Notes under the pieces: generated by a model
What the model was told of the DNA's origin: nothing
The model's input: only the letters and a program-made list of their open reading frames with translations
The model's database searches: none
Source: an uncultured Acidobacteriota bacterium
GTDB taxonomy: Bacteria; Acidobacteriota; UBA6911
Direction of reading: 5' to 3'
NCBI GenBank assembly: GCA_963843575.1
Contig: CAWJKZ010000011.1
Coordinates: forward strand, 64,001-128,000
DNA length: 64,000 nt
Made by a program: the position numbers and the translations under genes
Shown: positions 2-30,700 of the stretch, piece after piece
Layout of the letters: each line of letters starts with the position of its first letter
Position numbering within the stretch: the first letter of the stretch is position 1

Positions 2-3000
2 CGCGACCGTTTCTCGCAGGCGCGCGGCATCGTCGATTTCACCCTCACCCGCCTGTTAGGGGACGAGGCCAGGCACGTTGCGCCCTTCCTCGACCGCCCC
101 TGGGGGGACCTGCTCACCCCGGACACGATCGTCGACCACTTCGCCGACCTGTTCGAGGTGCAGCCGGAGTTCCTGCCGATTGCGCAAAAGGTCCTCCCCT
201 ATTTTCGCGGCCAGGTCCCGTTGATGTTCGACAGCACGGCGCAGCGCGACCTCGCCTGGAGGCTCCTGAAACTGCTGATCCTGACGCACCTGTCTCCCCG
301 GCGGGAGTCGCTCGACGCGGAGCAGGCCGCGCAATGGCTTCTCCTGAGGGTTTCGAGCATCGACCCGAAGAAAAACCGGGACATCGTCCAGAAGGCGCTC
401 GAGACGATCGCGCGCCAGGGCGCCTACGTCAAGCAGCAGGGGACGGACTTTCGCCTCGACCTGGAGGACGACAGTAAGGAGCACCTCGACCAGCTGCTGT
501 CGAAGACCGTCGAGGAGATGCGCGGGCGCGGCGACTCGGTGTTCGAGGGCCTCGTGCCCCTGCTGCAGCACGCAGAGTTCAATCCGTTCGCTCAGCCGCG
601 GGACCGCTGGCACACGCGCAAGGTCCGCTGGCATTTCCACGAGTGGGACCTGCACGTTTATTTCGGCGGCAGCACCCCGCCGGAACAAAAGGGACTCGCC
701 CTGCAGGTCGGGCTCCCGTGGGGCGCGGCGCCCGAAGGCCCATGCCACCGCATCGTCCCCGCCCCGCTCGAGGCCGGCCCCGATCTGCTCGAGCTGGCCG
801 CCCTGCAGCAGCTCAGGGACAGACCGCTGCCGGCGCGGGTGCTGGCCCGCGTCCAGCAGCGCATCGCCTCGCGCTCGCCGGCGTTCTTCTCCCTCGTCCG
901 CAACGCCTACGTGGAGGCCTCCGTGCTGGACGCGGCCGGCGACAAGATCACGCCGCCGCTCGCGCCGCTGCACGGCGGCCTGGCCGGGTGGCTGAACTCC
1001 TACGGCGAGTGGATCCTGAGGCAGACCTACCCGCTGTTCGAGCGGTTCGCACCCGGGTTCGGGCCGCTGCCGCGCGAGGCGTACCGGCAGTTCATGAGGC
1101 ACGTCGCCGAACACGATCTCGGAGCCCCCGAGGCGCCGGACTACGTTAAGTTGATCCGCGAGGCCTACCTCGTCCCGATGCAGCTGATGCAGCGCAAGGG
1201 GACCGAGTACGTCGTCAGCCCCAAGCTCGAGGGGAACGAGCTGGTACGGCTCCTCGCCCCGATCCTCGAACACCACCCGTCGCCCGCGCGGGTCTACCAG
1301 CACCTGGGTTCCCCGGTCTATGGCCTGGTCCCCGACCAGGTTCACCTGCTGCTGCTCGTGCTGCTGATCCAGGGCGAGATCGACATCGTGAAGGGAGAGC
1401 AGTCCTATCGCGAGGTCTACGAGACGCTGCCGAATCCGCTGCAATACGACAGGATCCTGCCGGGCCAGGCGCTCAGCCTCAACCAGCTGCGCGAGCTGCA
1501 GGCCTTCTGCGAGGGGTTCCGCATCCCCGTCCCGAGGCAGTGGAGCGTTCTGACGCAGAAGCGCGCCGTCGAGCAGCTGCGCCGGTACGGCAGCCGTCAG
1601 CGGGACCAGCTGAGCGAGTTCGCCACCCGGCTGAAGGCGTCGGGGGAGGCGGGCGACGTCACGGCGCGGGTCGAGGCCCTCATTTCGAAATGGCTGGCGC
1701 TGGAGAAGGGGGAACACGAGATCCAGGCGTTTCAGCACTTCGAGGTCGCGGCCGGCTCCGCCCGGAGGTTCGTGGTCGAAGCCAACGAAATCGCCTCGCT
1801 GCCGCAGCGCTTCGAGCGCCTGCTGCGGGAAGCGCAGCGCTACCGCCACCTCTTCGGCGACTCGCGCCTCGCCGGGTGCGCGTCCCCGGACATCGCCACG
1901 CGGCTCGAGGCGCTGCAGCCTGCCCCGCCGCTGTCGGAGCCCGAGGAACTCGACCGCTGGCTCGAACGCGCCCGCGCTCTCTACCAGCACTACCAGGATT
2001 GGTATCGCACGCGGCACGAACAGTGGCGCGACGCCGCCGGCCGCCACCCGGTCTGGACCTACCGCGTCCCCGCGATCGCGCGCAGCAGACACGTGATGAC
2101 CGCCGGGCTGGTCCAGGAGGTGGAGACGCTGGCGGCGGAGGCGAAGGCGCTGCGCTGCGCGGGGCTGACACCGCTCGAGTTTCAACCGGTCTGCCGGTGC
2201 GGCTTCGACGGCGTCGACGGCCCGCTTTCGGGAACGCTGCGCCGCTTCGAGGACGCCTCGCGCCGGTTGGAGCAGGAGGTCGCCCTGTTCTTCCAACAGG
2301 ACAAGGTCAAGGCACGGGTGCGCGAGTGGGTCGACCAGGGCGTCGAGTTGAGCACGCCGACGCTTTCGTACCTCGAGGGGAAGAGCCGGTACCCGGAGGT
2401 GGACAGCGTCGCCCTGTTCGATCAGCACCTCTCCGGGCTCGAGCTCGTCAAGCCGGTCGAGGCCGCTGAGCTGCTGGACGTGCTGGGCGAGCGGGTCTGG
2501 GAGAAGGGGGCGCTCATGCAGGCGCTGGAGCGGTTTTTCGAACGCGCCGGCCCCCGGATCTCCCTGCGACGCAGGGAGCCGGCGCCGAGAAAGGACCTGG
2601 TCGCGTGGTGCTACGCGCAGGCCCTGGCGCACGGGCAACCGCTCCCGCCGGTGTTCTCGCCGGCGGAGCAGGGACTCGCCGCCGGCCTGATCGATCCGCG
2701 CGGTGTCGGCGAGGCGGCGCTGCGGAACATCGAGGGGCTGGGATTGGGCGAGGAAGCCCTCCTGCGGGTCGTCGGAATGGTGCTCGACGGCGCGGTGCAG
2801 CCGGGAAGCCGGCCTGCTTCGGGCCCGGTGGCGGCGGCCCTGCAGCTCCTCTCGCCCGCCCGGCCCCGGACCGCCGGGGACCTGGCGGAACTGGCGACGG
2901 CGCTCTACGAACAGCACGGGAGATTGATGAAGCTGCGGCCACAGCCCTGGCTGGCGCGGCTGGAGGAGTTGGCCCAGGCCGAACTGGCGGATGCGCCGGG

Positions 3001-3451
3001 GCCGCTCGCGGATGTCCTCCGGGAGCACGCGGGGGCACAGTGGGTGGTGGTCGACTGCCTCGGGCTGCCGTTGCTTCGGACCGTGTCGGACCTGTTGCCG
3101 GAGTGCTTCCCGCACAGACGTGCGAGTACGCCGCGGTTTGCCGCGGTCTCCGAGCGCACCACAACGAGCGGGTTCTACGACGGGCTGATCGGGCAGGGGT
3201 TGGGAAAGAGCTTCGAGAAGATCGATGCGGTCGACCGGCTGGTGCACGAGCGCACGACGATGGCGGAACTGGCCCGGCTGGCGCGCGCCGAGCTGGAGGT
3301 CGCGTTCAGGAAGGTGAACGCCCGGCTGGACGCCTCTCAACCGGTCGCCATCTTCGGCGACCACGGCTTCCGCCTGGCCGCCGACGGCATCTCGTTTGCC
3401 CACGGCGGCCCCTCCACCCTGGAGCGCCTCACGCCGGTCTTCCTGATGTAA
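2..3451 (+). CDS. BrxC/PglY-like (DUF6079-type) ATPase, C-terminal part, fused to a PglZ-like alkaline-phosphatase-superfamily domain; 5' end outside the window
   Basis: Frame is open from base 2 (RDRFSQARGIVDF...), upstream of the annotated GTG at 158. Long helical region with the Cys motif LRC...PVCRCGF. C-terminal ~170 aa has PglZ-like motifs VVVDCLG, RTTT, DRLVH, GDHGF, HGGPSTLE. The Walker motifs would lie upstream of the window. Confidence 0.65.
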   Translation, partial: RDRFSQARGIVDFTLTRLLGDEARHVAPFLDRPWGDLLTPDTIVDHFADLFEVQPEFLPIAQKVLPYFRGQVPLMFDSTAQRDLAWRLLKLLILTHLSPRRESLDAEQAAQWLLLRVSSIDPKKNRDIVQKALETIARQGAYVKQQGTDFRLDLEDDSKEHLDQLLSKTVEEMRGRGDSVFEGLVPLLQHAEFNPFAQPRDRWHTRKVRWHFHEWDLHVYFGGSTPPEQKGLALQVGLPWGAAPEGPCHRIVPAPLEAGPDLLELAALQQLRDRPLPARVLARVQQRIASRSPAFFSLVRNAYVEASVLDAAGDKITPPLAPLHGGLAGWLNSYGEWILRQTYPLFERFAPGFGPLPREAYRQFMRHVAEHDLGAPEAPDYVKLIREAYLVPMQLMQRKGTEYVVSPKLEGNELVRLLAPILEHHPSPARVYQHLGSPVYGLVPDQVHLLLLVLLIQGEIDIVKGEQSYREVYETLPNPLQYDRILPGQALSLNQLRELQAFCEGFRIPVPRQWSVLTQKRAVEQLRRYGSRQRDQLSEFATRLKASGEAGDVTARVEALISKWLALEKGEHEIQAFQHFEVAAGSARRFVVEANEIASLPQRFERLLREAQRYRHLFGDSRLAGCASPDIATRLEALQPAPPLSEPEELDRWLERARALYQHYQDWYRTRHEQWRDAAGRHPVWTYRVPAIARSRHVMTAGLVQEVETLAAEAKALRCAGLTPLEFQPVCRCGFDGVDGPLSGTLRRFEDASRRLEQEVALFFQQDKVKARVREWVDQGVELSTPTLSYLEGKSRYPEVDSVALFDQHLSGLELVKPVEAAELLDVLGERVWEKGALMQALERFFERAGPRISLRRREPAPRKDLVAWCYAQALAHGQPLPPVFSPAEQGLAAGLIDPRGVGEAALRNIEGLGLGEEALLRVVGMVLDGAVQPGSRPASGPVAAALQLLSPARPRTAGDLAELATALYEQHGRLMKLRPQPWLARLEELAQAELADAPGPLADVLREHAGAQWVVVDCLGLPLLRTVSDLLPECFPHRRASTPRFAAVSERTTTSGFYDGLIGQGLGKSFEKIDAVDRLVHERTTMAELARLARAELEVAFRKVNARLDASQPVAIFGDHGFRLAADGISFAHGGPSTLERLTPVFLM

Positions 3452-3454
3452 AAC

Positions 3455-3504
3455 GTGCGGCGCCCAGGCGCCGCTCCCAAAGCGGCGTCGAGCCGCCGCA
3501 CTCC
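3455..3504. repeat. REP family A copy (GGAG-tagged hairpin)
   Basis: gtgcggcgcccaggcgccgctcccaaagcggcgtcgagccgccgcactcc matches the RAYT-flanking repeats. Confidence 0.85.
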
Positions 3505-3513
3505 ATAGAGGAT

Positions 3514-4455
3514 ATGACCGGCCCGGTCGTGGCGACCTTGAGACAGAACATGTTCAGCGCCCTGGCCGAAGGCCGGCTCGCCGACGCCGAAGACATCCTG
3601 GCGCACCTGAAACGTGAAGACCCGCTCAGCCAGGAAACACGCGGTTTCGAGCTGGAACTCCTCCTGAACTCCAACCGGCCGACCGAGGCCGCCGCGCTCG
3701 CGCGGCAGTTGTGCCGGCTTTTTCCGCAGTCGGCGCGGATCGCCTTCCTGGCCGGGAAAACGGCGTACCGGATGAGGCAGTACGACGAGGCGGAAGCGCA
3801 CTTCCGCGAGAGCCAGCGGCTCTATCCTCACTGGCGCACGCAGCAGTGGCTGGGCAAGACCCTCACTCAGCGCGGGAGCTTCGCCGAGGCCGAGGCGCTG
3901 CTGATCGCCACCCGCGAGCACACCGGCGGAGCCCTGCTGGACCTCGCTTGGCTTTACGAGAGGAAGGGCGACCTCGAGACCGCGCTGAAGGCGTGCGAAG
4001 ACTTTCTGGCCGCACATCCCGGGCAGCCCTATGCGGAACAGCAGCGGCTCAGGCTCAAAGCCAGGATGCTCGAGCCGGAATCCCTGATCGGCGAGATGGG
4101 CGCCCTGGGGGAGCTCGGGGAGGAGATTCCCGCGCCGCTGTTCCCGGAGTTCGTGCAGAAACTGTTCGAGACCGGACAGACGGAGGAGGCGCGGGAGAAG
4201 GTTGCGGCTCAGATGAGCCGTCTCGATGAGCGGACAGGCTCCCGGGTGGCGTGGGTGTGCTACCGGGCGCGCGCATACGACCTCGCCTGCGCGCTCTTCC
4301 TGGCGCACCTGCGCGGGAACCTGCACTACTACAAGTACCTGAACGCGCTGGAGGCGGCGGCCCGCAGGTGCGACCGCGTCCCCCAGGTCCTCGAAGCCTA
4401 CCGCGCCCTGTTTTCCGAAGCCCCCCACCTCCACGGCCGCTGCAAACGCCTTTAA
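3514..4455 (+). CDS. Tetratricopeptide repeat protein
   Basis: ATG 3514 after GAGGA; TPR-like helices (LAGKTAYRMRQYDEAEAHFRES, LGKTLTQRGSFAEAEALL, LAWLYERKGDLETALKACE). The ORF-track start at 2605 overlaps the previous gene. Confidence 0.8.
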   Translation: MTGPVVATLRQNMFSALAEGRLADAEDILAHLKREDPLSQETRGFELELLLNSNRPTEAAALARQLCRLFPQSARIAFLAGKTAYRMRQYDEAEAHFRESQRLYPHWRTQQWLGKTLTQRGSFAEAEALLIATREHTGGALLDLAWLYERKGDLETALKACEDFLAAHPGQPYAEQQRLRLKARMLEPESLIGEMGALGELGEEIPAPLFPEFVQKLFETGQTEEAREKVAAQMSRLDERTGSRVAWVCYRARAYDLACALFLAHLRGNLHYYKYLNALEAAARRCDRVPQVLEAYRALFSEAPHLHGRCKRL

Positions 4456-5267: not shown

Positions 5268-5657
5268 GTGCCACGCAGGAGGTCTCCGACCCTGACGGAA
5301 GGTGAACTCAGGTTGATGCAGATCCTTTGGGACAAACGCTCCGGAACGGTCGGCGACCTGGTCGAGCACCTGCAGCCCGAGACGGCGCTGGCCTACAAGA
5401 CCGTGCTCACGACGGCCCGGATCCTCGAAGCCAAGGGCTACGTGCGGCACGAAAAGCGCGGGCGGGCTTTCGTGTATTTCCCGGTTATCGAAAAGCGGCA
5501 CGCGCGGCACAACGCGTTGCGCTACCTTCTCACACGGTTTTTCGACAACTCGCCGGCGGCCCTGATGTTGAACCTCCTGCAGGACGAGGAGCTCGACCCT
5601 CGGGAGCTGGCGCGTCTCAAGCAGCTGATCAAGGCGGAGCTGAGCTCGTGGAGCTGA
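5268..5657 (+). CDS. BlaI/MecI/CopY family transcriptional repressor
   Basis: LTEGELRLMQILW...LAYKTVLTTARILEAKGYV...RAFVYFP winged-helix signature. Confidence 0.93.
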   Translation: MPRRRSPTLTEGELRLMQILWDKRSGTVGDLVEHLQPETALAYKTVLTTARILEAKGYVRHEKRGRAFVYFPVIEKRHARHNALRYLLTRFFDNSPAALMLNLLQDEELDPRELARLKQLIKAELSSWS

Positions 5658-7018
5658 TGTGTGAAACCCTCTGGCAGGGGTGTCGGACTTGCGCTGGTGG
5701 CCTGGTGTCTGCTCGTCGTCTTGCGCTGGTCGCGCGCTTCGGTGCGCTACGCGGTCCTGTGGGCTTCGATTGCCGCGGCCGTGTCGCTGCCGCTGCTGCG
5801 CCGGATACCGGGAGCGAGCCGGCGGCCGGAGTCGCCGCGGGCCAGGCGCATCTTCCCGCTCCAGCTCACACGTCCCGGCCGCCGGCGATTTTCGGGTAAA
5901 GTTCGCGGCGGCGCTGTGGCTGCTCGTCGCGACGCTGCTGGTGCTGCGCCTCGCGCTCGGGATCGTGGGCAGCGCGCCGGATGCGAGCGCGGTGCGCGCC
6001 GGCACCCGCGTCCGTCCTGCGCCGGCTCCGGGTTCCGATCGGGCGCCGCGGTTTTGCGGGCGAGCTGCTCCTGTGCGACGAGGTCCGCATCCCGTCGGTG
6101 CTTGGGCTCTTCCGCCCCGCGATCGTCATGTCACGTCGGCTCGTGGAGAGCTTGAGCGACGACGAGCTCGACCAGGTCCTCCTGCACGAGTGGGCGCACA
6201 TCCGGAGGCGCGACCAGTGGGCCAAGCTTGCCCAGGGCGCCGTCCGGTGCCTCTGGTTTTTCCACCCGGGGATGTGGTGGCTGAGCCGCAGCCTCGACCT
6301 TGAGCGGGAGATCGCCTGCGACGAGTGGGTGACGTCGCGGACACGCGCCCCGCGTCTCTATGCGTCCGCGTTGACCTCGGTCGCGCAGTCCCTCGTCGGC
6401 CCGCAACGGCTCGGGACGGCGCCGCAGACTGCGACATCCCGCCGGGAGATCACCCTCAGGGTGGAGCGGTTGCTGCGGAGCGAGGGGCGGCCGCCTCTCG
6501 CCATCGGGTGGAGTTGGGTGGCTGCTGGCGTGCTGTTCGCGGCGGGTGCGGCAGCGGTCCACCATTCCATGCCGGCGTTTACGCGCGATGGTGCGGGGGA
6601 AGCGCTCGTCCTTTCAGGGACCTCCCCGATCATCACTCCGGCCGCGGAGCTCGTCGGTCCCGCCGCCGAGAAGCCGCTGCCGCGTCGTGCGCCGCAGCAG
6701 GCGCGCGCTCAAAGCCGCGCGCAGTTGCCGCCGGCCGCAGATGACACGCCTGCGGCGCCGCAGGCCGACCCGGGCGAAACAGCACGCACGGAAATAGCGG
6801 GGGCAGCGGCGGGCGAGCTGCCGGGGCCCCGTTCGATGGAACTGAATGAGCTATTAATTGATGCATCCTCCCCCCCCTCATTAGCCTCAGGGCAGAAGCG
6901 CGTGGGCTTGATCGATGTGTCGGGCTTCCACAGCCTGGCCGGCAGCCTTGCGCGCTCCGGCAAGGGCGCTGGTGGATTCTTCCAGAGGCTGGCAGTCTCG
7001 ACGCGAGACTCTTTTTGA
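5657..7018 (+). CDS. M56 (BlaR1/MecR1-type) membrane metallopeptidase, frameshifted in the N-terminal third
   Basis: TGATG overlap with the repressor; MCETLWQG start; HEWAHIRRRD zinc motif, WFFHPGMWW, EREIACDE; pieces lie in several frames between 5657 and ~6000. Confidence 0.85.
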
Positions 7019-10282: not shown

Positions 10283-10333
10283 GAGTGCGGCGCCCAGGCG
10301 CCGCCCACAAAGCGGCGTCGACCGCCGCACTCC
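10283..10333. repeat. REP family A copy
   Basis: gagtgcggcgcccaggcgccgcccacaaagcggcgtcgaccgccgcactcc. Confidence 0.85.
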
Positions 10334-30573: not shown

Positions 30574-30700
30574 GGAGTGCGGCGCCTCGGCGCCGCTTTC
30601 GCTTATGCCCTGGCCGGAATACCCGGCGCCTCGGCGCCCTATAGGAAGTGGTGCGGCGCCCAGGCGCCGCACCCATAGCGGCGTCGAGCCGCCGCACTCC
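30574..30700. repeat. REP family A cluster (four hairpins)
   Basis: ggagtgcggcgcctcggcgccgc...ggcgcctcggcgcc...gtgcggcgcccaggcgccgcac...gcggcgtcgagccgccgcactcc. Confidence 0.85.

Follow-up and report, generated by a model that had tools for sequence, protein, structure and literature searches.

A predicted BrxC-type ATPase–PglZ fusion and its TPR partner: a probable two-gene, BREX-derived module in an uncultured acidobacterium

A stretch of 64,000 nucleotides from the genome of an uncultured Acidobacteriota bacterium (the window; positions 64001-128000 of contig C11 of genome G000, G000:C11:64001-128000) opens inside a gene that very probably belongs to a two-gene module derived from the bacteriophage exclusion (BREX) systems. 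The module would comprise a BrxC-type ATPase fused to a PglZ phosphodiesterase and a tetratricopeptide repeat (TPR) protein, without a methyltransferase. As a molecular description this is held with high confidence; towards the complete model, in which the module also has a restriction-type role, we lean only slightly. The source genome spans 6.68 Mb in 27 contigs and is 88% complete. The GC content of the window is 64-72%, which accounts for the long open reading frames (ORFs) on both strands. The ORF that an earlier, sequence-only reading had described as open past the window edge is indeed so: 1149 amino acids lie within the window and 1421 make up the complete protein. Reading the upstream contig in the same frame gives a full gene of 1421 codons with a TTG start at G000:C11:63186 (L009:15186, in the numbering of this locus), 815 bp before window base 1. 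The stop-to-stop frame of 1429 amino acids is 8 codons longer; homologues align from residue 1-3, so the TTG start fits. An antisense ORF at 56..3403 (-) found no support as a gene, its translation being of the Arg/Pro/Gly-rich, low-complexity kind usual for high-GC antisense frames, while the + frame 2..3451 reads as an ordinary protein. The elements of the module are the following (window coordinates, with residues of the complete fusion protein).

2..3451, + strand: 3' part of the brxC-pglZ fusion gene, 1149 codons and a stop, open at the 5' edge of the window
Residues 1-290, + strand, nearly all upstream of the window: AAA+ P-loop domain
173..466, + strand (residues ~330-427): end of the AAA+ lid and first winged helix-turn-helix (wHTH), BrxC-like
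599..931, + strand (residues ~472-582): alpha+beta domain, from the secondary structure of the predicted model; 44% mean pairwise identity among 32 homologues
1478..2341, + strand (residues ~765-1052): long helical, coiled-coil-like region, from the predicted model
2156..2200, + strand: Cys motif C991-x11-C1003-x-C1005, invariant, in a loop at the tip of a helical hairpin
2609..3028, + strand (residues ~1142-1281): helical linker that belongs to the PglZ module; linker and core align jointly to BREX PglZ 9zn5 and PorX
3029..3448, + strand (residues 1282-1421): predicted minimal NPP/alkaline-phosphatase core of PglZ type, with D1290, T1327, D1350/H1354, D1392/H1393 and H1406
3455..3500, between the fusion gene and the TPR gene: palindrome resembling a repetitive extragenic palindromic (REP) element, hairpin -37.2 kcal/mol, z -6.5
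3514..4455, + strand: TPR partner gene, all-helical product of 313 amino acids, ATG at 3514 with AGAGGA just 5' of it

For the ATPase half, the Pfam family DUF6079 (PF19557) scores 101 bits (E 4.7e-29; cut-off 23) in two stretches, the best being residues 124-286, which bears out the assignment to this family made from motif resemblance in the sequence-only reading. According to a survey of BREX diversity, DUF6079 is in effect a profile of full-length BrxC (10.1101/2025.10.09.681413). Pfam also returns generic AAA matches on the N-terminus. A P-loop ATPase had been expected upstream in the same frame, and it is there, with an intact Walker A motif (GHYGSGKSH) and Walker B motif (LLVIDELSE); residues G62, G65, G67, K68, S69, D142 and E143 are invariant among 32 full-length homologues. 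The PADLOC models for BrxC-PglY and SspC match at 1.9e-22 and weaker, and no PADLOC model fits beyond these weak BrxC and SspC ATPase matches. A profile built from the 32 homologues matches the Acinetobacter BrxC in the PDB at 6e-7. Judged by these profile matches, the ATPase is BrxC-type, an AAA+ protein from the ORC/Cdc6 clade.

The region between the ATPase and the C-terminus follows the same plan. As the survey describes it, BrxC runs from an AAA+ domain through a wHTH, an alpha+beta domain and another wHTH to a coiled coil with an apical subdomain (10.1101/2025.10.09.681413), and the predicted model of residues 273-1421 has its elements in this same order. A Foldseek search with this 1149-residue model (residues 273-1421) gives no match at E up to 0.001. 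Within the model, the Cys motif RCAGLTPLEFQPVCRCG falls in a loop at positions 717-740, between two long helices, and C991, C1003 and C1005 are invariant both in the 32 full-length homologues and in 51 C-terminal sequences. The sequence-only reading had seen this motif but had counted ten residues between the first two cysteines; the spacing is C-x11-C-x-C. Its position in the model suggests a metal knuckle or hook.

Sequence and predicted structure agree that the C-terminal 280 residues are a PglZ module cut down to a helical linker and a catalytic core of ~140 residues. The sequence-only reading had placed a domain of ~170 amino acids here; its PglZ type holds, while its size is revised to ~140 amino acids plus a helical linker of ~140 amino acids that belongs to the same module. 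The ligand motifs that it had listed are all present in the order given, as AQWVVVDCLG, SERTTTSG, VDRLVH (DxxxH), FGDHGFR and AHGGPSTLE. Residues D1290, G1293, T1327, K1345, D1350, H1354, D1392, H1393, G1394, H1406, G1407 and E1413 are invariant in the 32 full-length homologues, and the catalytic set from D1290 to E1413 is equally invariant in the 51 C-terminal sequences, which are 25-57% identical to the window protein. The core thus appears to keep every metal ligand and the Thr nucleophile, the equivalence to the ligands of PorX and NPP enzymes being drawn from motif order and from hhalign.

How closely does this C-terminus resemble known PglZ domains? The predicted fold of residues 1100-1421 (predicted local distance difference test, pLDDT, 94; predicted template-modelling score, pTM, 0.84) shows the NPP/alkaline-phosphatase alpha/beta/alpha arrangement with a helical linker before it, and T1327 opens the helix after strand 2. 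With these residues, Foldseek places PorX first (7.5e-4, probability 0.99) and BREX PglZ 9zn5_B tenth (9.3e-3), followed by phosphopentomutase, MCR-1 and alkaline phosphatases. In a wide structure search independent of Foldseek, the best three of 48,161 chains are PorX (12.3), BrxC (12.2) and BREX PglZ (11.1). Linker and core align to residues ~297-747 of BREX PglZ 9zn5 and to 120-515 of PorX, so the C-terminus does model, as the sequence-only reading had proposed, as an alkaline-phosphatase/NPP fold closest to PglZ-domain proteins. The core, of ~140 amino acids, compares with ~300 in PorX and BREX PglZ, and because only 211 residues align across the PorX range 120-515, the inserts are probably absent from it. 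The survey counts a three-stranded cap insert as a PglZ hallmark (10.1101/2025.10.09.681413).

Sequence searches connect the same region to PglZ through intermediates. A C-terminal profile searched against 1.84 billion representatives returns 264 proteins with an E of 0.001 or lower, the strong matches all being the C-termini of proteins of ~1400-1450 amino acids or their fragments. Its weak tail holds protein P0262 (~1e-12) and two sub-threshold PglZ proteins. P0262 itself scores 27.1 bits on PF08665, above the 25-bit cut-off, and hhalign pairs the C-terminal profile with it at a probability of 98% (E 2.7e-13, 219 columns), with D, TTT, DxxxH, DHGF and HGG..E all in register. The best sequence match in the PDB is the PglZ protein 9nv3_C, at a weak E of 0.068.

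The second gene of the module encodes a TPR protein (Pfam TPR_16 at 4.9e-12), for which an ESM Atlas search returns generic TPR clusters only. Its linkage to the fusion gene was surveyed in the best 80 of 322 confirmed homologous stretches, on contigs from one genome per species. A TPR orthologue (32-91% identity) is linked in 68 of the 80 loci, in keeping with the linkage that the sequence-only reading had predicted. It lies upstream and divergent in 66 of these 68, within 592 bp in 61 of the 66; in the remaining loci the TPR gene is downstream, convergent in one and in tandem in the other (L010, from a 93%-identical sister genome). Seven of the 12 unlinked loci have a flank of <1.2 kb on at least one side, and all five of the well-flanked unlinked genomes carry exactly one strong TPR orthologue elsewhere (E 1e-87 to 1e-131). 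Among 61 related genomes, in each of which at most 37 first-look candidates were scored, 8 carry the fusion gene; the TPR gene occurs in 7 of these and in none of the 53 others. The single TPR-less carrier is a 78%-complete genome with the fusion gene on contig ends. Carriers among the genomes searched hold one copy each. The TPR protein thus co-occurs with the fusion protein as a dedicated partner. Pairwise identities of the TPR proteins and of the C-terminal domains also correlate (r 0.82, Mantel 0/999, 40 loci), a correlation for which shared descent alone could suffice.

The co-oriented arrangement noted in the sequence-only reading is correct for this locus and an exception in the family: in the genus of the window the TPR gene sits downstream in tandem, instead of in the usual divergent upstream place. 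Gene order across the family indicates that the TPR gene has moved from a head-to-head position to a downstream tandem one in this genus. That the pair stays adjacent through a rearrangement, and keeps to the same genome even when unlinked, argues for functional dependence rather than chance neighbourhood. A fusion of the TPR protein to the large protein was considered for three longer representatives (1675-1783 amino acids) and rejected, their N-terminal extensions being unlike the TPR protein (best E 1.1); these extensions are of low complexity and without TPR similarity, and so probably stem from mis-called starts.

The intergenic DNA has features of its own. Here, the 62-bp spacer between the two genes holds the REP-like palindrome, followed by AGAGGA and the ATG. 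This GC-rich palindrome of ~45 bp recurs on the contigs of the genome, with at least 43 matches at 82-100% identity, and further copies lie in the window at 10285-10329 and 30651-30696. In other loci some of the divergent spacers measure merely 20-50 bp. In many loci, promoter-like TGnTAnnnT elements can be seen by eye ~15-35 nt before the fusion start (TGTGATACGAT, TGTGGTACATT, GCTAGTATACAAT), and a like element, again found by eye, is present here (GCTGTAGAAT at L009:15150-15165). As for an operator, the TGnTAnnnT elements are all that was seen by eye in 52 divergent spacers of 20-465 bp.

The other parts of a BREX system are missing from this locus. The span between -15 kb and +9 kb holds no methyltransferase and no BrxA, BrxB, BrxL or PglX, and the 96 ORFs scanned around 15 homologous loci include no methyltransferase either. 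Across the whole genome (88% complete), PF08665 (PglZ, by six-frame scan), PF08747 (BrxB) and PF08849 (BrxA) find no match, the BrxA blank being weak because the BrxA control matched in no control genome. A third conserved gene is likewise absent: when 3911 ORFs from 81 loci are clustered all against all, no other neighbour family occurs in more than six loci, and the larger neighbour clusters consist of ORFs that overlap the fusion gene or the TPR gene in other frames.

What the sequence-only reading took for an unusual architecture proves to be the usual build of a whole family, confirmed in 322 genomic stretches from several phyla. Its full-length homologues form more than 120 clusters at 44-74% identity. 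PF19557 is found in all full-length homologues among the matches listed, the sole row without it being a partial sequence of 1127 amino acids. Cultured carriers are Sulfidibacter corallicola M133 and Acanthopleuribacter pedis KCTC 12899. A longer protein, P0258 (1654 amino acids), combines DUF6079 with a final ~80 residues on which the PglZ-like profile scores E ~1e-14. Its similarity to the window protein is confined to the ATPase and the last 140 residues, at 26-38% identity, and it represents a second, longer fusion subfamily. The distribution of the fusion gene is patchy, with 7 of 36 other genomes of the same family, none of 24 in other families of the class, and 1 of 16 and 1 of 9 genomes in two genera. 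The TPR tree requires 15 changes of phylum, where 6 is the least possible and shuffling gives a mean of 29.2, and it contains several between-phylum placements. The patchy distribution, the tree and the slow evolution together point to an accessory chromosomal module that is occasionally transferred.

How might such a module work? In PMC13326643, BrxC is described as dimerising or oligomerising with ATP and DNA, its AAA+ domain as binding BrxB:PglZ, and PglZ as nicking and cutting DNA. By analogy, the BrxC part would bind DNA and, depending on ATP, dimerise or oligomerise, and would in this way place and switch on the tethered PglZ phosphodiesterase, the covalent fusion standing in for the BrxB bridge between BrxC and PglZ. 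The tip with the three cysteines may hold two arms together, and the TPR protein, which the sequence-only reading had proposed as the sensor of an anti-phage system, could act as a regulatory or target-recognition subunit. Since there is no methyltransferase, the choice between self and non-self cannot rest on methylation. We lean, at about even odds, towards restriction of foreign DNA as the outcome, set off through the TPR protein or the DNA-binding modules.

Several observations weigh against a restriction-type role, or against close kinship with BREX. On NCBIfam BREX_BrxC (NF033441, the type-1 BrxC equivalog) the fusion protein scores 81.8 bits, below the cut-off of 400, and Pfam PglZ (PF08665, cut-off 25 bits) finds no match in it at E up to 1, so that each half is only distantly related. 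PorX scores somewhat above BREX PglZ in the structure searches, making an oligonucleotide as possible a substrate as DNA. For one genome pair (G000 and its sister; Nei-Gojobori with Jukes-Cantor correction), the ratio of nonsynonymous to synonymous substitutions (dN/dS) comes to 0.148 in the fusion gene, 0.12 in the TPR gene and 0.10-0.36 in five flanking genes; by this measure both genes are under purifying selection, at a level with their flanks. In 32 sequences that span several phyla, pairs are on average 60% identical in the AAA+ domain, 56-62% in the wHTH regions, 47% in the PglZ core and 43-44% in the alpha+beta domain and the coiled coil, so that all domains are, as these alignments indicate, well conserved across phyla. 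The survey describes the corresponding modules of BrxC in BREX as fast-evolving (10.1101/2025.10.09.681413).

The genomic context adds to this. The neighbours scanned, 96 ORFs from 15 loci out of 161 chosen from 17 loci, are transporters, enzymes of amino-acid and cofactor metabolism, two-component and sigma-54 regulators and peptidases. The sole ones with a nucleic-acid or defence flavour are an SNF2 helicase (L068), a MutS fragment (L035) and a patatin (L075), and the 96 ORFs include no integrase, transposase or known defence family. No full-length relative occurs on 72,556 plasmids, in 50,697 phages or in 2.9 million viral contigs, the plasmid matches being 10 records of the ATPase only, at a coverage of at most 24%; these blanks are weak because the collections are poor in these uncultured phyla. 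The context is unlike that of a typical defence island, and a defence role is without contextual support.

The same facts can be turned into a different account, in which the module is a cellular, non-defence machine for handling DNA (repair, processing of DNA structures, or maintenance of the chromosome or nucleoid), either a domesticated BREX core or a relative of the BREX ancestor. Here the BrxC-type ATPase, its metal hook borne on a coiled-coil arm, would load on a conserved DNA feature together with the TPR protein, the tethered PglZ would nick or trim, and the whole would not be an immune system. Housekeeping neighbours in 15 diverse loci, the lack of plasmid, phage and viral-contig copies, purifying selection like that of the flanking genes and uniformly high conservation that includes the DNA-binding wHTH modules all suit this account, as do the single copy per genome and the clustering of phylum labels on the TPR tree. 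The patchy distribution is unlike that of a core function, several placements on the tree fall between phyla, all characterised relatives of the two halves (BREX, Pgl) are parts of defence systems, and plasmid and phage collections hold few records of these phyla. On balance we consider a cellular machine unlikely. If it were true, the BREX core would have a cellular counterpart or ancestor, one that shows the job of the core minus the methylation and phage-sensing layers.

The structure searches raise another alternative, a phosphodiesterase switch in the manner of PorX, in which cyclic or linear oligonucleotides are the substrate, the ATPase and the TPR protein sense a signal and the output is regulatory. 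The survey reports that the PglZ domain of PorX cleaves cyclic and linear oligonucleotides (10.1101/2025.10.09.681413). The differences in Z that favour PorX are small, though, and the structures available for BREX PglZ are hybrid models of low resolution. What remains of the protein, a DNA-binding scaffold of BrxC type, carries wHTH modules and no receiver domain, and the neighbourhood holds no conserved gene for a cyclase or an effector. Such a switch seems to us distinctly improbable. Far less credible still is a functionless locus, whether what is left of a BREX operon in decay or an ORF called wrongly in GC-rich DNA. High GC does give long open frames on both strands, and the copy in the sister genome (G001:C6:103373-107638, L010) is matched in three pieces, residues 1-579, 579-1155 and 1163-1421. 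One unbroken nucleotide alignment, with no more than 9 gap positions, spans all three, so that they probably reflect sequencing indels rather than decay. Against a remnant or artefact also stand the >120 full-length homologue clusters at 44-74% identity, the invariant catalytic and Walker residues, the dN/dS of 0.15 and the confident predicted models; as far as sequence analysis reaches, the conservation data refute it. The reading preferred here remains that of a two-gene, BREX-derived module that may restrict foreign DNA.

Around the module in the window and upstream of it, several further features were recorded. Upstream lie genes for an EEP-family protein, a protease of tricorn type, a ceramidase and a rhamnosidase; downstream follow a BlaI/BlaR1-type pair, a radical-SAM protein and peptidases. 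The tricorn-type protease (L009:10825-15067, equal to G000:C11:58825-63067) reads as three ORFs with S41, PDZ_Tricorn and PD40 domains, a split that may be due to a frameshift or an assembly error. Neither it nor the EEP-family gene has a counterpart at the same place in the sister genome (L010), in which the flanks are colinear. The BlaI-type repressor (Penicillinase_R, 1.1e-29) and then the BlaR1-type M56 peptidase occupy window positions 5268-7018, and the ~800 bp from the TPR stop to this pair hold no recognisable gene and have no match in the sister genome. Elsewhere in the genome, a second DUF6079-like P-loop protein of 1021 amino acids (G000:C14:910264-913329; L093:10264-13329) scores 30.2 bits on PF19557 and 1.6e-7 on the PADLOC BrxC model. 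It was rejected as a BREX locus, the match being weak and the gene flanked by those for a class A penicillin-binding protein and a spermidine-synthase-like protein, without BREX partners nearby.

To our knowledge, how BREX stops phage is unsolved, and the way in which the ATPase controls PglZ is likewise unknown. A fused ATPase and PglZ with a single TPR partner and no methylation layer would offer a two-gene system in which the coupling of ATPase and phosphodiesterase could be studied directly. Its housekeeping-like evolution also raises the question of whether the BREX core, too, has a non-immune role.

Among known systems, the closest sub-complex is the BrxC:BrxB:PglZ assembly of type 1 BREX (Acinetobacter 9zdx, 9zll and 9zn5; Salmonella 9nv3). 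As in BREX, the N-terminal two-thirds of the fusion protein correspond to a BrxC/DUF6079 ATPase with a BrxC-like lid and wHTH, and the C-terminal 280 residues superpose on the linker and phosphatase core of BREX PglZ (~300-747) with the catalytic residues kept. Here, one polypeptide replaces two proteins bridged by BrxB, and a TPR partner is present that BREX does not have. The fusion lacks three elements that the survey describes for BREX PglZ (10.1101/2025.10.09.681413), namely the BrxB-binding domain at its N-terminus, the HTH units and the Ig-like C-terminal domain, and conservation is much higher here than the survey gives for BrxC. With no PglX methyltransferase or PAPS reductase, and with brxC and pglZ not separate genes, the module falls outside BREX types 1-6, and on its profile scores the fusion protein is not an orthologue of type-1 BrxC. 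Literature searches on DUF6079, PglZ, BrxC and TPR returned no description of a fusion-TPR module. Term searches of both versions of the BREX-diversity survey (Rakesh and Krishnan, NAR 2026; PMC12839542; 10.1101/2025.10.09.681413) give no TPR partner and, with four wordings for a fusion, no BrxC-PglZ fusion, though its supplementary tables might list fusions.

PorX, the response regulator of type IX secretion (7pv7, 7pvk, 8tff), shares the PglZ domain in another setting: it has an N-terminal receiver and a PglZ domain of ~300 amino acids with inserts, whereas the core of the fusion protein measures ~140 amino acids, is joined to an AAA+ ATPase and is 12-14% identical to it. A parallel in terms of parts is offered by the HerA/FtsK-centred BREX-related system and the type-3 'BR' systems, non-canonical systems that, in the survey, likewise draw on an ATPase of the DUF6079/BrxC-like kind and on a PglZ that is shortened or stands alone (PMC12839542; 10.1101/2025.10.09.681413). 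As presented there, they keep the two as separate genes within systems of 5-7 genes with, among others, a methyltransferase, helicase, STAND protein and HerA (PMC12839542), whereas here both are joined in a single protein with one TPR partner.

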